From: Candidatus Wukongarchaeum yapensis
GTDB lineage: Archaea; Asgardarchaeota; Wukongarchaeia; Wukongarchaeales; Wukongarchaeaceae
Length of the DNA: 12,767 nt
NCBI GenBank assembly: GCA_016840425.1
Contig: JAEOSI010000040.1
Location: forward strand, 1-12,767
Reading direction: 5' to 3'
Made by a program: the position numbers and the translations under genes. Every line of letters begins with the position of its first letter. The stretch's first letter is position 1. A model generated the notes under the pieces. That model saw only the letters and a list, made by a program, of their open reading frames with translations. It did no database searches and was not told the DNA's origin. Of this stretch, positions 2,467 to 12,767 are shown in pieces.

Positions 2467-3225
2467 ATGGTGGATCTCGATATAAGGATCAACGGCAAAC
2501 AACTATTAGAACTAATAAAACCAATAATTTCTCCATGTACCAATGATATCTATAGTTTTTCCGATATCGAAGAAGAGATGGAAGAAGATTCTGAAAACAA
2601 GATTCTCATCGTGGTATTAAACAAAGAAACGAGTGAAACCATCGGATTCTCTTTGATAACCGTAGATAGATCATTAGATGAGGAAGGGAAAAAACTTCCT
2701 CTGGTAGGCGTTATAGAACTTCTGTGCGTCATTCCCAGCGAAAGATCTACCGAAACTCCCCTTAAAATAATAGAAGCAATAGGAAATCTTGCAAAAGAAA
2801 ATTTTTTGGAATCCCTCGAAGCATCAGCTTTTATAGAAGATAAATGGCTCCTTAAAGCGTTGCAAAAAACAGGCTTCACAGCTTATGCAGCATGTTTAGA
2901 TAAAGAGATCGAAAACATAGAAGATGCATACAGATTCTTTGAAATCTTTAAAGAAGAATGGAACGAACGCATGTATGTAGAAATATTATGCCGAGACCTC
3001 CATAACGGTGATTGCTACTCCCACCTAATGGAGGATATAGAAGAGGTAGAAAACTTTCTTAAAGAAGCAAAAAACGCAGGAAAACACCCACTCCTTGTCC
3101 GCATATACGTCCAATTAAGATCCCTCGATGAAAAAGAGACCAGCCCCCTACATATGAGAACAAAAATTGATTGGGATGCTGTCTCAATACTTTTTGATAA
3201 ATGGATAAACAAATACAACCAATAA
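2467..3225 (+). CDS. GNAT-fold protein with degenerate acetyl-CoA motif plus an uncharacterised C-terminal domain
   Basis: GGAGG RBS upstream. Pattern ETIGFSLIT...VIELLCVIPSER...LLKALQKTGF follows GNAT motifs A and B. Confidence 0.62.
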   Translation: MVDLDIRINGKQLLELIKPIISPCTNDIYSFSDIEEEMEEDSENKILIVVLNKETSETIGFSLITVDRSLDEEGKKLPLVGVIELLCVIPSERSTETPLKIIEAIGNLAKENFLESLEASAFIEDKWLLKALQKTGFTAYAACLDKEIENIEDAYRFFEIFKEEWNERMYVEILCRDLHNGDCYSHLMEDIEEVENFLKEAKNAGKHPLLVRIYVQLRSLDEKETSPLHMRTKIDWDAVSILFDKWINKYNQ

Positions 3226-4003: not shown

Positions 4004-4504
4004 TCAGCTTTCCTCCATCTTTTTTAGCGCTTCTTCAACAGCCTCTTGAGCAGCTTCCCTGATTTTTTCTAACCGACCACGAGAAACACCGCTTTCCTCC
4101 ACTATCTTGTCCAAATCTCCTTCTAAAAGGTCTTTTGTAGAGGTAATACCTACATTGCTAAGCTTTTCAAGCATGACTTTTCCCACACCTTTCACACCGC
4201 TCAATTCAACAAGCTCTGCTACTTCCTTTAATTCCCTTTCAACGGCTCCTTTCTTTGCCTTTACTCTCCCTTTTTTCACAACTTCTTTCTCTACTTTAAG
4301 GGTCTCTGTAAACTCCTGTAAAGCCCTAATATTCTCCTCATAGGCTGTTCTCCGCCGAGTATCAACACTTAACCCGAACTTTCTAGCCATTTTAACCGAT
4401 AAATTAACCGCACTTAACTCTTTTAAACTGAAACCTTTACCCTGCCTAAAAGGCTTCACCATATCTGCTGAGGGCGTTTTTACTACAGACCTTGGCAAAT
4501 CCAT
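4004..4504 (-). CDS. rpl13e: Ribosomal protein eL13 (L13e) fused to a C-terminal helix-hairpin-helix domain
   Basis: L13e signature RQGKGFSLKEL...ARKFGLSVDTRRRT...NIRAL. C-terminal LSGVKGVGKVMLEKLSNVGITSTKDLL...SGVSRGRLEKIREAA is HhH-like. GGAG lies 8 nt before ATG 4504 and only 2 nt before ATG 4510. Confidence 0.9.
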   Translation of the reverse strand: MDLPRSVVKTPSADMVKPFRQGKGFSLKELSAVNLSVKMARKFGLSVDTRRRTAYEENIRALQEFTETLKVEKEVVKKGRVKAKKGAVERELKEVAELVELSGVKGVGKVMLEKLSNVGITSTKDLLEGDLDKIVEESGVSRGRLEKIREAAQEAVEEALKKMEES

Positions 4505-4622
4505 GTTCATTTCTCCAACCTTTTATAAGGACTAAACAATATTAATCCCTATAAAATATTTTTATTCTTCTAAAAACTTAAGCATATTTTATTATCTTTC
4601 TAACTCAAGAAGATGATAATGC

Positions 4623-9079: not shown

Positions 9080-9748
9080 ATGTTTAGAATGAACATGGAT
9101 GAAAGTTTTTCTGAAAATATTTCTGAAGATTTTATAGATGGAAAAAAATCGAAGGGTAAAGAGGCGGTAATAACCAAAGAAATAATTGAAGGAAGCCTCC
9201 GAGAAATCGATGTAAACCGTTATATTTTTGTAGCATATACTTTTACAGATTCAGAACACGCTGAAGTTTCAGTTGTTAGAAGCTGGCGTGGTTTAGCAAA
9301 AAAAGGTTTAAATCGCATGATTAACGTTCTTTTAGATTTTGGCCATCTTTTAAAAATGATCGCTTTTGATCCTGCAGCAGCAAAAGAAGTTTGCTCCTTC
9401 CCCATACTTGAATTAGGGAGGTTGGGTAAAGAAGAAATATCCCTTTACGAAACAAAGTTTTCTAACGCTCTTCTCGTGTGTTTGTATTATTCCGATATGG
9501 AGCTCGCTTTGGGGGAAGTTCCTGTAACACAAGTACTATACCGCTTTGGCTTGAAAAAACCGATAATTTTTAGCGTTACTTCAGATGTTTCAACAAGCCT
9601 TGTTATAGGTGTTTTAGGGGATGTACCCCAAGGGGATAAGCTAATAAAACTTAAGGAAATCCTTCAGAATTTTATGTTAGCCTTTGAAAGCTGCTTAATA
9701 CCTCGTCATAATATGAAAATCACCCATGTCCTAGACTTAGGCTTTTAA
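9080..9748 (+). CDS. Hypothetical protein, possible divergent Roadblock/longin-like fold (GTPase partner)
   Basis: GGAG RBS; 40 nt upstream of the GTPase. The C-terminal VTQVLYRFGLKKPIIFSVTSDVSTSLVIGVLG...LIKLKEILQNFMLAF has the three-strand-plus-helix pattern of Roadblock proteins. The gene call is firm; the fold call is tentative. Confidence 0.6.
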   Translation: MFRMNMDESFSENISEDFIDGKKSKGKEAVITKEIIEGSLREIDVNRYIFVAYTFTDSEHAEVSVVRSWRGLAKKGLNRMINVLLDFGHLLKMIAFDPAAAKEVCSFPILELGRLGKEEISLYETKFSNALLVCLYYSDMELALGEVPVTQVLYRFGLKKPIIFSVTSDVSTSLVIGVLGDVPQGDKLIKLKEILQNFMLAFESCLIPRHNMKITHVLDLGF

Positions 9749-9788
9749 CAATCTTAATCCCCTCTGTTGGTCTTTGGAGTGAGTTATT

Positions 9789-10325
9789 TTGGTAAATATA
9801 GGCTTGTTAGGTTATAAAAACGTCGGAAAAACAAGCCTGTTTACCCTCTTTAAAGAGACAAAAGGCGTAAAAGTTTTAACTGGTCAGTTTGGCTCATCTA
9901 GAGAAGGTCACACAGTCACCATGGATTTCATAAGGTTCACAAACGAGGGAAAAATGCATTCACTTTTCGGAACGGGGGGGCATGAATGGCGTTTAACCGT
10001 ATACCACCGGAACTATGTTTTAAAAAACGCCGATAATTTCGTTTGTATGTTTGATTTATCGGTCCCATCAGAGCCTCAACTTGAATTTTTTAAAAAACTA
10101 GAGATTTTAGCAAATCCTAAAGGTAAGCTCGTTATCGCCCTTAATAAATACGACTTAGTGAAGGAAGAAAGCGTTTTTGAAACTTTTAAACAAACAATAG
10201 AAGAATCAAGGTTCATAAGCACGATAAAAACTGTCAAAATTTTACCCACTGTAGCAGTTCCTAAAAATGGGTATGAAAAATTCAATGAAAACGCTGTAAA
10301 AGCTGTCCTCCTTCTATGTGACTAA
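9789..10325 (+). CDS. Small GTPase, MglA-like prokaryotic Ras-superfamily group
   Basis: G1 GYKNVGKTS, G2 HTVTMDF, G3 region LFGTGGHE (cf. LFGTPGQ of MglA/CvnD-like GTPases), beta4 FVCMFD, G4 ALNKYD, G5-like PTVA. TTG start with GGAG/GAG upstream. Confidence 0.92.
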   Translation: MVNIGLLGYKNVGKTSLFTLFKETKGVKVLTGQFGSSREGHTVTMDFIRFTNEGKMHSLFGTGGHEWRLTVYHRNYVLKNADNFVCMFDLSVPSEPQLEFFKKLEILANPKGKLVIALNKYDLVKEESVFETFKQTIEESRFISTIKTVKILPTVAVPKNGYEKFNENAVKAVLLLCD

Positions 10326-10469
10326 AAAGTTAAAAACCAAGAGCTTATAAAGGGGCTTAAAAGCAGATCCTAGGGAGGAAAAAATATTACCCTCCATCTC
10401 CATATAATTAAAAAGAATATACTCATCAAATCAAAATATCATAAACTAAAATATAAGAGTAGAAACAAA

Positions 10470-11171
10470 ATGTTTCAAGACGATAAAAGGCTTCGTAAAC
10501 AGGTTTATTTTTATCCATGGTCCATAGCCAAAATAATCCGTCATGTTAGTAGGTTTCCTCATCGTGAAATAGCAGGTTTTCTCATCGGAAAAGTTTCCAA
10601 AGAGGGAGAACTATACATTTTTGATGCAATGAGCGGGAAACATCAAGGTACTAGCACTTCTGTAATATTAGACGAAAGTATAATGGCGCAAATAGCAGAA
10701 GATTTAGAAAAATATGGAGAAGAATTAGCCATTGTAGGATGGTACCACAGTCACCCTGGGCTAGGAGCCCATTTTATGTCAAGTACTGATGTTCAAACCC
10801 AAAAGGTTTATCAATCCTATTTTCCAAAAGCTGTAGCCCTCGTAATCGATCCTGTTCCCTTCAACCGCTCTGGAAACTGGGAAGATATCGATATACATCT
10901 CTACCATGTAGTTAAAGACGCCTATAAAGAAAACCAGGTAGTTTATATAACCGACATAGAGAAAGTTGTTCCCCATCTTGTCCACGCATTAAGCTTTGAA
11001 TTTATCCCTCCTAAACCTTCTCCGGAAAAAGAAGTACCCCAAGAAGAGCTCTACTATCCTACTGAAGTTAAACAAGAAAAAATGGACTATTTCTCCGAAA
11101 TAGTAAACTACTTTTTTGCTTCTGTTATAACAATTATTTCTTTAATCCTGATAATCTTTACAAGCATATGA
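10470..11171 (+). CDS. JAB1/MPN+ (JAMM) metalloprotease, Rpn11-like, with C-terminal transmembrane anchor
   Basis: Catalytic Glu in HREIAGFLIG, IVGWYHSHPGLGAHFMSSTDVQTQ and ALVIDP, followed by a Pro-rich linker and terminal hydrophobic IVNYFFASVITIISLILIIFTSI-stop. Confidence 0.92.
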   Translation: MFQDDKRLRKQVYFYPWSIAKIIRHVSRFPHREIAGFLIGKVSKEGELYIFDAMSGKHQGTSTSVILDESIMAQIAEDLEKYGEELAIVGWYHSHPGLGAHFMSSTDVQTQKVYQSYFPKAVALVIDPVPFNRSGNWEDIDIHLYHVVKDAYKENQVVYITDIEKVVPHLVHALSFEFIPPKPSPEKEVPQEELYYPTEVKQEKMDYFSEIVNYFFASVITIISLILIIFTSI

Positions 11172-11207
11172 AGATTAGACCCTAAAAAAGAAAAGGAAAC
11201 GATAACA

Positions 11208-12728
11208 ATGGTTCAGGAAACCGATAAAAAGTCTTCTAAAAAAGAGGAAACAGGGCAACTTATACCCTTATTTTCTTCCATAAATTTTACGCTATCTCCG
11301 GGAGACTTAAAACATCTTATCAAAAAATTAAGCGGTTTAGGCTTTGAGCAAAATGCCTATGAAGAAGATGGAAAAAGAATAGTTTTAACCCCGAAAGATT
11401 ATAGCACTTTTAAGCTCCTTGATGCAAAAGTTTTAGTAAAGTTTCCCAGGCTATTTGATCCCTTAAACTTTTTGGTAACGTGTTATTCTGGGCAACTCAA
11501 AGTGAAAGAGAACACAGAAGTGTTAAACGTAAATTATCATGGGTCAGTAAATGGTCTTGATGCAAGGAGAATGCTAAGTCTCTCAAACCTTCTTGAATTC
11601 GCAGAATGGCCAAAAGAGCTGGAAAAATGGATCAAAAGTCCGTTAATTTTCTCCGTTTTTTTGTGTAAAAACAAAAAGACTATCAACCAAGTCGTAGAAG
11701 AAAATTTCCCAGACCAGGAAGTACAATGGATCGCAGATGAAGACTCTTCTACGAAAATAGCTTTTTTAGGACAAAGTCCTGGCAAACATGTTTCAGGCTA
11801 CGTGATGACTACTTCGTTCGATGTCTTGCATTTTGGTCCTGATTGGCAGCTAAACGAAGCAACCATGCCTGATTCCATAGTCGTTTTCATAGTGGATAAA
11901 GAACTATATACCAACGCTAAAAGGGATTTAGAAGAGTTCGGTCAGTTCGATTTTGTCAACATAGGCTCCTCAGTAAAACTCTCCTCTCTTCGCGCTTTAG
12001 AAATCATAGAAAAACTTTTACCGTGCATAGTTCTTTTTAACAATCTACTCAAAATTAAGGAAGAGATAATTAACATTCTTGCAGAAACACCTCAATTATA
12101 CGGGGAGGACTATCGTGGCTATCTTGAGGCTCTAATCGCAGTTGATGAAAAACTTTTCACCCTCGACGAACTCTTTCATAACGCCAAAAATGTAGTAAAA
12201 ACCACAATATCTGCTCTAGAAATAAACAGTGTTTCTAACTATTTAAATTCAAATACAGAGGATGGTCAATGGTTAAACGATACTATTAAAGTCCTAACTG
12301 AAAAAGGTTATTTAGGTCTTCTATCTCTCATAGAAGATCTTGTCGACAGCCTAAATAAAGCCAAAGACCTCATACAGAGGAAAATAACCATAGTTAACCT
12401 TCAACTATCTCTAAGACGAGAAAAAATAGAGATCACAGAAAACCGTATTCTACGCGGTATATCCATCATATTTTTGGGAGCAGCAGTAGCCGAAATATTT
12501 TCCCAAATCCTCCCCTCCTTCTTTTCAAGTTTCTGGTTTATTCTAACCGTGAGCTTAGCAGAAGGATTAGGTATCGGCTTACTTCTCTTATGCGGCTTTG
12601 AAATAATGTCTGAAAAATCAAAAGCTATAGACGACAAAAGAAAAATAAGCCACCAACTCATAATCTTTACAACAATCTCCGCATTAATGATCATAATCCC
12701 AATAATCTATATCTTTAGGCGGCTCTAA
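11208..12728 (+). CDS. Membrane protein with large soluble N-domain, long helical stalk and three C-terminal TM helices (CorA-like architecture, no GMN motif)
   Basis: Stalk LIEDLVDSLNKAKDLIQRKITIVNLQLSLRREKIEITENRILRG runs into TM1 ISIIFLGAAVAEIF, then TM2 FWFILTVSLAEGLGIGLLLLCGF and TM3 LIIFTTISALMIIIPIIYIF. The gene call is firm; the family call is weak. Confidence 0.7.
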   Translation: MVQETDKKSSKKEETGQLIPLFSSINFTLSPGDLKHLIKKLSGLGFEQNAYEEDGKRIVLTPKDYSTFKLLDAKVLVKFPRLFDPLNFLVTCYSGQLKVKENTEVLNVNYHGSVNGLDARRMLSLSNLLEFAEWPKELEKWIKSPLIFSVFLCKNKKTINQVVEENFPDQEVQWIADEDSSTKIAFLGQSPGKHVSGYVMTTSFDVLHFGPDWQLNEATMPDSIVVFIVDKELYTNAKRDLEEFGQFDFVNIGSSVKLSSLRALEIIEKLLPCIVLFNNLLKIKEEIINILAETPQLYGEDYRGYLEALIAVDEKLFTLDELFHNAKNVVKTTISALEINSVSNYLNSNTEDGQWLNDTIKVLTEKGYLGLLSLIEDLVDSLNKAKDLIQRKITIVNLQLSLRREKIEITENRILRGISIIFLGAAVAEIFSQILPSFFSSFWFILTVSLAEGLGIGLLLLCGFEIMSEKSKAIDDKRKISHQLIIFTTISALMIIIPIIYIFRRL

Positions 12729-12767
12729 AAGAAATTCTCTTAACAGCACTAAAATATGTTCAATAAA

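Follow-up and report, generated by a model that had tools for sequence, protein, structure and literature searches.

Gene content of the locus

The stretch of DNA that we analyzed (the window) comprises 12,767 nucleotides of a contig of Candidatus Wukongarchaeum yapensis. Between positions 9080 and 12728 it carries four open reading frames (ORFs), all on the + strand and separated, in order, by gaps of 40, 144 and 36 nt. A preliminary description of this DNA had given the same co-oriented ORFs and gaps, and all of its coordinates were reproduced; the GTPase, JAMM protease and membrane helices that it had claimed were recovered as matches to TIGR00231 and PF01398 and as predicted transmembrane (TM) helices. 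The first gene, ORF1 (9080..9748, 222 aa), encodes a GTPase partner without known family; its start is probably at 9089, because the ATG at 9080 is out of frame in the congener SMTZ1. It is followed by the gene for a small P-loop GTPase (9789..10325, 178 aa), which has a TTG start, and by the 144-nt intergenic gap (10326..10469). Beyond the gap lie the gene for a tail-anchored, Rpn11-like JAMM metalloprotease (10470..11171, 233 aa) and a big gene encoding a 506-aa membrane protein (11208..12728).

Comparison with two congeners indicates purifying selection on all four ORFs, with dN/dS values of 0.13-0.14 for ORF1, 0.10-0.13 for the GTPase, 0.43-0.51 for the JAMM protein and 0.19-0.21 for the 506-aa protein. 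As 763 of the 1269 adjacent ORF pairs in this genome are same-strand, the co-orientation of the four genes is ordinary.

The GTPase and its neighbor

The GTPase passes TIGR00231 with a score of 42.6 against a cut-off of 42.5. It has the G1 motif GYKNVGKT (aa 8-15), the G2 Thr in TVTMDF (aa 42-47) and the G4 motif NKYD (aa 119-122), and both a lipidation tail and a TM helix are absent. Its G3 motif is GTGGH (aa 61-65), with neither Asp nor Gln, which agrees with the earlier description of an MglA- or conservon-like G3 lacking Asp. Over 14 aligned members of the GTPase family, G1 (GxxxxGKT), the G2 Thr and G4 (NKxD) are invariant, the set expected of a Ras-like/TRAFAC small GTPase, while G3 is GTGGH in the Wukong and Hod types and APGGD in the Loki types, Asp-less as in the MglA type; the position of the catalytic Gln is occupied by His or Asp in all of them. 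In MglA this Gln is Q82 (PMC13408092), and the MfpB GTPase of the mfp conservon (MfpB/C/D/E) has a GXXGQ G3 without Asp (PMC13015309).

The GTPase family is present in all three genomes of families f1 and f2, this one included, and in 17 of 21 genomes of f21, 61 of 68 of f9 and 7 of 7 of f23. ORF1 and the GTPase adjoin in all three Wukongarchaeales genomes. One of these belongs to another family (G002); there, an ORF1 homolog with 35% identity lies immediately upstream of the GTPase, 15 nt apart, and the flanks are unrelated. A coordinate count showed a distant ORF1 homolog and the GTPase adjacent and co-oriented in 64 of the 68 Loki-type genomes (f9/f23) having both. By absolute measures ORF1 is only a weak homolog of this Loki-type partner of ~270 aa (HH probability 23%, ~21% identity); the hhalign E-value of 0.0009 was the best non-self match among 60 families (the next being 0.022), and ORF1 ranked top when the Loki partner profile was run against 5139 ORFs. 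Judged from these comparisons, ORF1 and the GTPase are an old pair common to Wukongarchaeales and Loki-type archaea, and the conserved adjacency favors the earlier proposal that ORF1 is a dedicated GTPase partner. The partner is not obligatory, since it was detected in none of the 21 f21 genomes, though the GTPase is kept there. A 303-aa gene that follows the GTPase in f21 was considered as an ORF1 homolog and rejected when the comparison showed no homology. This genome has no significant match to the gene that comes third in the Loki-type cluster, or to the one that precedes ORF1 in G002. A complex prediction for the GTPase, ORF1, GTP and Mg scored 0.01, which is evidence neither for nor against binding. 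We found no description of this GTPase pair in the literature searched.

Predicted fold of ORF1

ORF1 has no match in Pfam, NCBIfam or PADLOC. Its structural model has a pLDDT of 55.7, with residues 94-146 mostly below 50. Three structure searches with this model gave LuxR-type ligand-binding and GAF domains as the best matches: the RhlR ligand-binding domain (Z 10.7, rmsd 3.6, 154 residues aligned) and a GAF domain (Z 9.9), a Foldseek E-value of 5e-4 and Atlas TM scores of 0.52-0.55 to GAF/LuxR-type domains. A Loki profilin was matched with Z 7.0. Among the 50 best structural matches there was no Roadblock or longin entry, an absence that is not enough to dismiss either fold. The elements of the model are ordered helix-strand-strand-helix...strand-strand-helix, an order common to the Roadblock, profilin and GAF folds. 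From this low-confidence model, ORF1 is predicted to be a GAF-like or profilin-like alpha-beta domain. The model comes closest to GAF and LuxR autoinducer-binding domains (Z about 10-11, 135-154 residues aligned); the protein differs from them in sequence (5-11% identity) and in having no Pfam GAF match, HTH or kinase output domain.

The preliminary description had named Roadblock/longin regulators of eukaryotic trafficking and the Roadblock + GTPase link of bacterial conservons as background. ORF1 could be an enlarged Roadblock/MglB-type GAP, the pair then being an ordinary MglA-MglB variant: its predicted element order would fit, and, like MglB and the conservon protein MfpD (PMC13015309), it is encoded just ahead of a GTPase without the G3 Asp. 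However, ORF1 has no match to the Roadblock family PF03259 at E<=1, whereas 14 other sites in the same genome do match; it is twice as long as a Roadblock domain, and the structure searches, with a low-confidence model, favor LuxR-type ligand-binding and GAF domains. We consider this explanation doubtful.

The tail-anchored JAMM protease

The JAMM protein passes PF01398 (E 1e-18), and its closest PDB entry is CsRpn11 (6FJU, E 3e-35). The catalytic set, aligned with CsRpn11, is complete (E33, H93, H95, S104, D107), and the motif is stretched by one residue, a feature shared with many anchored orthologs. By its motif, it is a catalytically intact Rpn11-like protease. CsRpn11 of Caldiarchaeum subterraneum (6FJU/6FJV/6FNN; PMC6043591) has the same full JAMM set, and no Ins-2-type insertion is seen in the JAMM here in the alignment. 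CsRpn11, however, is soluble and encoded in a ubiquitin operon, while the protein studied here has the one-residue motif insertion and a single C-terminal TM helix (aa 215-233) and is encoded away from the ubiquitin locus.

All of the 30 best Asgard JAMM loci have a C-terminal TM helix, and tail-anchored forms occur in 12 Asgard families with different neighbors in each. The membrane JAMM of the preliminary description is thus upheld by an intact motif and a C-terminal helix conserved across families. Six families of genes neighboring the anchored JAMM were compared with ORF1 and with the big protein, and none was similar to either (hhalign E>0.2). In several families the anchored JAMM has genes of 416 and 257 aa at its sides, which are absent at the locus studied here; a 416-type match lies on contig C63 of this genome, and the 257-type was not found there. 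The JAMM tree does not gather the anchored forms into one clade (5 changes, at least 3 of them forced) and so neither shows nor dates a single origin. PADLOC gave only sub-family JAB matches, and a defense-system reading was therefore dropped. The literature searched held no description of an anchored Asgard JAMM.

This protein is the sole PF01398 match in the genome. The genome has a eukaryote-type ubiquitin system: a ubiquitin ending in GG is encoded on contig C109, with no JAMM at that locus; its neighbors there are RING-like, UEV-Vps23-like and Vps28-like (named by inspection and from bioRxiv 10.1101/2023.07.25.550441). A single-contig Odin-type genome (G003) gave no JAB match apart from the anchored form, and its ubiquitin bears a C-terminal extension. 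Five genomes of family f6 yielded neither a ubiquitin nor, at E<=1e-15, any protein matching this JAMM.

The 506-aa membrane protein

The 506-aa protein is predicted to consist of an N-terminal alpha/beta region, a long helical stalk and three C-terminal TM helices (aa 417-435, 444-462 and 484-502). The long helices and three TM helices agree with the large stalked membrane protein described earlier; the role of scaffold or substrate then given to it is not supported. Its homologs are confined to congeners (85-90% identity); sequence searches for distant relatives likewise returned congeners only, and DUF3422 gave no match. In structure comparisons CorA/Mrs2 came first in Foldseek, short of significance (E 0.14, own model with pLDDT 40), the Atlas model reached a TM score of 0.56 (by target) to a CorA cluster, and a VIA match (Z 12.0) covered the helices alone; the pLDDT-40 model is too poor to decide the fold. 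In its predicted layout the protein is like CorA/Mrs2/ZntB (2-TM-GxN), first in three weak structure comparisons, with an alpha/beta N-terminus, stalk helices and C-terminal TMs; it differs in lacking the GMN/GxN filter that ends TM1 in that family (GxN occurs nowhere in it), in having three predicted TMs and no Pfam CorA match, and in being about 150 residues longer. Canonical CorA is encoded elsewhere in both Wukongarchaeum genomes, and GMN is seen in this genome's copy.

The 144-nt gap and transcription

A TATAAT at 10403 and a GGAAAAA-TTATTAC stretch are kept in four congeneric sequences (background identity 82%). The TATA-like word reported earlier is therefore present and conserved among congeners, but its frequency is not above that of shuffled sequence: of 844 free upstream regions of 144 nt in the genome, 276 contain TATAAW, against 374 in shuffles. 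RNA structure in the gap was not significant (z 0.03), and a sigma-70 promoter scan, ill-suited to archaea, stayed at chance level. The gap possibly holds a separate promoter. In one metatranscriptome with a small Wukongarchaeum share, one contig covers 9535-9998, across the gap between ORF1 and the GTPase gene, a second falls inside the JAMM gene and none spans the 144-nt gap; such contigs can show neither transcripts nor their absence. In two of four congeners the big gene has an upstream in-frame ATG overlapping the JAMM stop codon, which hints at coupling.

Conservation of the gene order

The order of the four genes is kept in three Wukongarchaeum contigs (this genome, G001 and SMTZ1), so that the two pairs are syntenic in two other genomes of the genus, and the four adjoin one another only within it. 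Because the upstream 9 kb (LysRS, eL13, ArgZ-like, LplA) are equally syntenic, this conservation is uninformative. The genes directly downstream of the four vary among the three genomes. A second JAB gene, prokaryotic-type and convergent, lies directly downstream of the four genes. Outside the genus, members of the GTPase family, the ORF1 family and the big protein were found in 0 of 40 wide JAMM loci (26 tail-anchored), and none of 37 wide GTPase loci contained the big protein or, at E<1e-10, an Rpn11-like JAMM. In G002 the JAB genes are soluble forms on contigs other than that of ORF1 and the GTPase.

Because the GTPase pair and the JAMM gene lie apart in every other lineage examined, and the big gene was not found outside the genus, a four-gene system is not supported, and neither is the single signaling or cargo-turnover system of the preliminary description; its division into two gene pairs stands. 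We read the locus, with a probability of roughly 0.8, as independent units, probably transcribed as two, that have come to lie side by side in this genus. Counting against independence, the four genes stay together while the downstream genes differ among congeners; a recently assembled, genus-specific system would be expected to look the same as juxtaposition.

The JAMM and 506-aa proteins might nevertheless be a true functional pair within the genus, a deubiquitinase plus the protein that it acts on or joins in the membrane, without any role for the GTPase pair. Their genes are adjacent in all four congeneric contigs that have both, with a 36-nt gap or an ATGA-type overlap, both products are anchored C-terminally in the membrane, and the convergent JAB gene next door would suit such a pair; yet the anchored JAMM occurs without a detectable homolog of the big protein in 11 other families, and the big gene is restricted to the genus; we regard this pairing as improbable. 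That all four form one membrane system assembled in Wukongarchaeum, with the GTPase switch controlling a membrane deubiquitinase that acts on the stalked protein, would suit the shared strand, the short gaps, the constancy of the four in three contigs beside variable downstream genes and the two membrane-bound products, but is very improbable given no co-occurrence outside the genus, a genus synteny that spans the entire upstream block, a different conserved context for each widespread component and a possible separate promoter in the 144-nt gap.

Proposed functions

Under the preferred reading of independent units, ORF1 and the GTPase (unit A) would be an old two-gene G-protein switch. The intact G1, G2 and G4 motifs suggest that the GTPase binds GTP/Mg. 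Because it lacks the G3 Asp and the catalytic Gln, it is probably a poor GTP hydrolase by itself and dependent on the partner encoded with it. ORF1, from its conserved adjacency, is most likely a dedicated regulator, which may bind the GTPase and act as GAP or GEF in the way that MglB acts on MglA, with another fold. A tentative, rather unlikely extension is that ORF1 and its Loki-type homologs each consist of a free-standing GAF-like domain that senses a small molecule and that binds and gates the GTPase, itself devoid of the two catalytic residues of G3; this would be a ligand-controlled switch, with a regulator fold undescribed for Ras-like GTPases, common to Wukongarchaeia and Lokiarchaeia.

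The MglA-MglB polarity switch (Myxococcus, Thermus) and the actinobacterial conservons (cvn/mfp) likewise place an Asp-less-G3 GTPase beside a small alpha/beta partner. Unit A differs from them in the replaced Gln, in the absence of an MglA or ATP_bind_1 sequence match and of a Roadblock match in the partner, and in having no sensor kinase or MfpC-type gene; no kinase family matched any of the four proteins, and none was seen by inspection in the G002 and Loki-type neighborhoods. The Asgard Roadblock-small GTPase-DENN operon (bioRxiv 10.1101/2020.10.19.343400) also joins a conserved small GTPase to a putative regulator; unit A differs in having no DENN and no Roadblock match, another GTPase family and a patchy range (Wukong, Hod and Loki types).

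The first gene of unit B would encode the cell's Rpn11-type deubiquitinase, held at the inner membrane face by its C-terminal helix. From its motifs, its conserved anchor and the activity of CsRpn11, it may remove or mature the ubiquitin encoded at the other locus. The 506-aa protein would be a lineage-specific, divergent protein of CorA layout, most likely oligomeric and channel-like with altered selectivity; its gene may be co-transcribed with the JAMM gene, and a functional tie to the JAMM is not part of our proposal.

If true, a four-gene system would have joined GTPase switching physically to deubiquitination, a rare connection, in an archaeon closely related to eukaryotes; the comparative data lend it no support. 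What is new is that the ORF1-GTPase pair reaches Wukongarchaeia, with the GAF-like fold of the ORF1 model as a lead. Many Asgard small GTPases are orphans, and a pair spanning two Asgard classes offers a specific candidate regulator for one of them. Both this genome and the closed Odin-type genome yielded the anchored Rpn11-like enzyme and no other of that type, which suggests that some of the archaeal ubiquitin cycle takes place at the membrane.

Gene content and conservation of the locus

The preliminary description placed four forward-strand ORFs, separated by 40, 144 and 36 nt, at the end of the window, and these are present as claimed: ORF1 (9080-9748, 222 aa), a small GTPase (9789-10325, 178 aa), an Rpn11-like JAMM protein (10470-11171, 233 aa) and a 506-aa membrane protein (11208-12728). 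Because the four proteins are 77-92% identical to those of congeners, with a dN/dS <1 for every one, we consider the ORFs to be real genes. The window covers the whole of contig C244 in an assembly of 2,156,567 bases and 277 contigs; the genome of Candidatus Wukongarchaeum yapensis As_085 is described as 2.16 Mb in 277 contigs and 92.5% complete (bioRxiv 10.1101/2020.10.19.343400). The TATA-like word noted earlier in the 144-nt gap is present and conserved, but comparable upstream regions carry such words in a third of cases, fewer than shuffled sequences do, and 60% of neighboring ORF pairs in this genome share a strand. Neither the word alone nor co-orientation alone is an argument for a four-gene system.

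The end of the window (12624-12767) is identical to the first 144 nt of contig C238 (L006:1-144), and because of this exact contig-end overlap the region runs on into C238, where a 166-aa orphan, a prokaryotic-type JAB gene (L006:652-1122, minus strand), GCV-H and a beta-CASP nuclease follow. In the congeneric genome G001, this JAB gene and the 506-aa gene are immediate neighbors in convergent orientation, which places the 506-aa gene between two JAMM genes. Elsewhere in the window are an eL13 gene (4004-4510) with a C-terminal helix-hairpin-helix extension (PF01294 and PF14520 in congeners) and a genus-conserved 252-aa orphan (2467-3225) that scores weakly as an acetyltransferase (AAC(6')-like, E 0.026).

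The synteny check suggested in the preliminary description finds the four genes in the same order in G001 and in a second congeneric contig, SMTZ1, but this is uninformative: the upstream block from LysRS through eL13 and an ArgZ-like gene to LplA is kept in the same order in both, so that the arrangement shows genome closeness only. In G002, the only genome available from another family of the same order, ORF1 and the GTPase lie 15 nt apart between unrelated flanks, and the JAB-family genes are soluble and on other contigs. Phylum-wide, none of 40 wide JAMM loci outside the genus contained the 506-aa protein or a member of the GTPase or ORF1 families, and none of 37 wide GTPase loci contained an Rpn11-like JAMM or the 506-aa protein. 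Some of these loci are broken off where a contig ends, and the G002 assembly has a completeness of 91%. We therefore favor, with a probability of roughly 80%, a locus made up of independent units. That the JAMM and the 506-aa protein form a functional pair specific to the genus is unlikely; no tie between them was found other than adjacency in one genus. The proposal that all four genes constitute one membrane signalling or cargo-turnover system was not borne out, the GTPase and JAMM loci being apart in the lineages compared outside the genus, and it is now highly improbable. Our literature search found no description of the anchored Asgard JAMM or of the GTPase pair.

The anchored JAMM and the 506-aa protein

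The zinc site of the JAMM is complete, and the protein comes closest (E 3e-35) to CsRpn11, a soluble archaeal enzyme shown experimentally to be a deubiquitinase (PMC6043591). The C-terminal TM helix of this JAMM is shared with other Asgard genomes, occurring in the 30 best-scoring Asgard loci (30/30) and in 12 families overall; JAMMs within ubiquitin/E1/ESCRT clusters are soluble, as are two CsRpn11-like proteins of 202 aa. One f7 orthologue (L104:4203-4802) has a basic tail and no TM helix, as against four other f7 copies, through either loss or assembly error. The neighbors of the anchored JAMM vary from family to family, and none of six neighbor families compared with ORF1 and the 506-aa protein was similar to them. 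A co-oriented pair of 416-aa and 257-aa genes lies 5' of the JAMM in several families (L109:3958-6650, L127:4273-7088, L131:1425-4545), of which only a 416-type match was found in our genome, on C63. In f12 genomes the tail-anchored JAMM is convergent with a Roadblock-like gene (L129:6502-8012, L045, L038).

This JAMM is the only PF01398 match in the genome. A ubiquitin locus (C109:16045-19997, L153) encodes a ubiquitin whose C-terminus is already GG together with RING-like, UEV-Vps23-like and Vps28-like proteins, and neither a JAMM nor an obvious E1 was found in that cluster, which adjoins two Yip1-like 5-TM genes. In the single-contig, 1.42-Mb genome G003, which we take to be Odinarchaeum, the anchored form is the sole JAB match, and the ubiquitin carries a C-terminal extension requiring proteolytic removal. 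We infer that the JAMM is most likely a general membrane-bound DUB.

Even when 1.8 billion representatives were searched exhaustively, the 506-aa protein had relatives at 85-90% identity only. Its N-terminal part is alpha/beta, followed by long helices and then by three TM helices at the C-terminus. CorA-family entries came out on top in three structure comparisons: an Atlas search (first among named families; TM 0.56 by target), Foldseek (E 0.14, which is not significant) and VIA-align (Z 12.0, over helices only and in a range common for helical bundles). The layout resembles CorA but the GxN motif is absent, and a normal GMN-bearing CorA is encoded elsewhere in the genome. We do not place the protein in the CorA family; the odds that it is a divergent, channel-like protein of CorA layout are about even.

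The GTPase and its upstream partner

Of the GTPase motifs, G1, the G2 threonine and NKxD are intact, but the G3 sequence, GTGGH, has neither the Asp nor the catalytic Gln. MglA and conservon GTPases are known to lack the G3 Asp as well, with GXXGQ in MfpB (PMC13015309); those proteins keep the Gln, whereas this one does not. No close match to a solved structure or Pfam family was found. Profile searches detected the family in 3/3 Wukongarchaeales genomes, 17/21 of f21, 61/68 of f9 and 7/7 of f23, the last two being presumably Lokiarchaeia. Genomes of f23 also hold a second Asp-less paralogue that has no upstream partner (L203:4682-5308, L205:4423-5067). In f21 (Hod-type) the GTPase is kept beside a different gene, unrelated to ORF1, which gives this GTPase family another conserved setting. 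In these genomes (L023:2113-3024, L220:2133-6997) a conserved 303-aa protein, winged-helix-like by eye, lies 3' of the GTPase, and the GTPase is divergent from a P-loop ATPase of ~1025 aa with a HerA/DUF87-like Walker A.

In f9 and f23 a conserved ~270-aa gene lies directly 5' of the GTPase, adjacent by coordinates in 64 of the 68 genomes having both. ORF1 and this Loki partner have the motifs F-x11-R-x-W-x-G and D-x5-GE in the same order, and profile comparison made them the top non-self match among 60 families (E 0.0009; runner-up 0.022). Searched against the 5139 ORFs of our genome, the partner profile ranked ORF1 first, yet with an E of only 0.08. Because the profile match comes together with a shared position, homology appears likely, though not proven.

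In the most probable mechanism, the GTPase would act as a switch that binds GTP but hydrolyses it weakly by itself, and the co-encoded ORF1 would regulate it. The pair would work like MglA-MglB, but differs from that system in two membership features, the catalytic Gln in G3 and a Roadblock match in the adjacent gene, no Roadblock Pfam match being found in ORF1. The best matches of the ORF1 model (pLDDT 55.7) were LuxR-type ligand-binding and GAF domains (Z 10.7, rmsd 3.6, 154 aligned), with Z 9.9 against a GAF domain and 7.0 against a Loki profilin. What the window newly provides is a possible GAF-like fold for ORF1, suggested by its predicted structure, and a probable tie between ORF1 and the Loki partner family, through which the GTPase pair would reach a second class.
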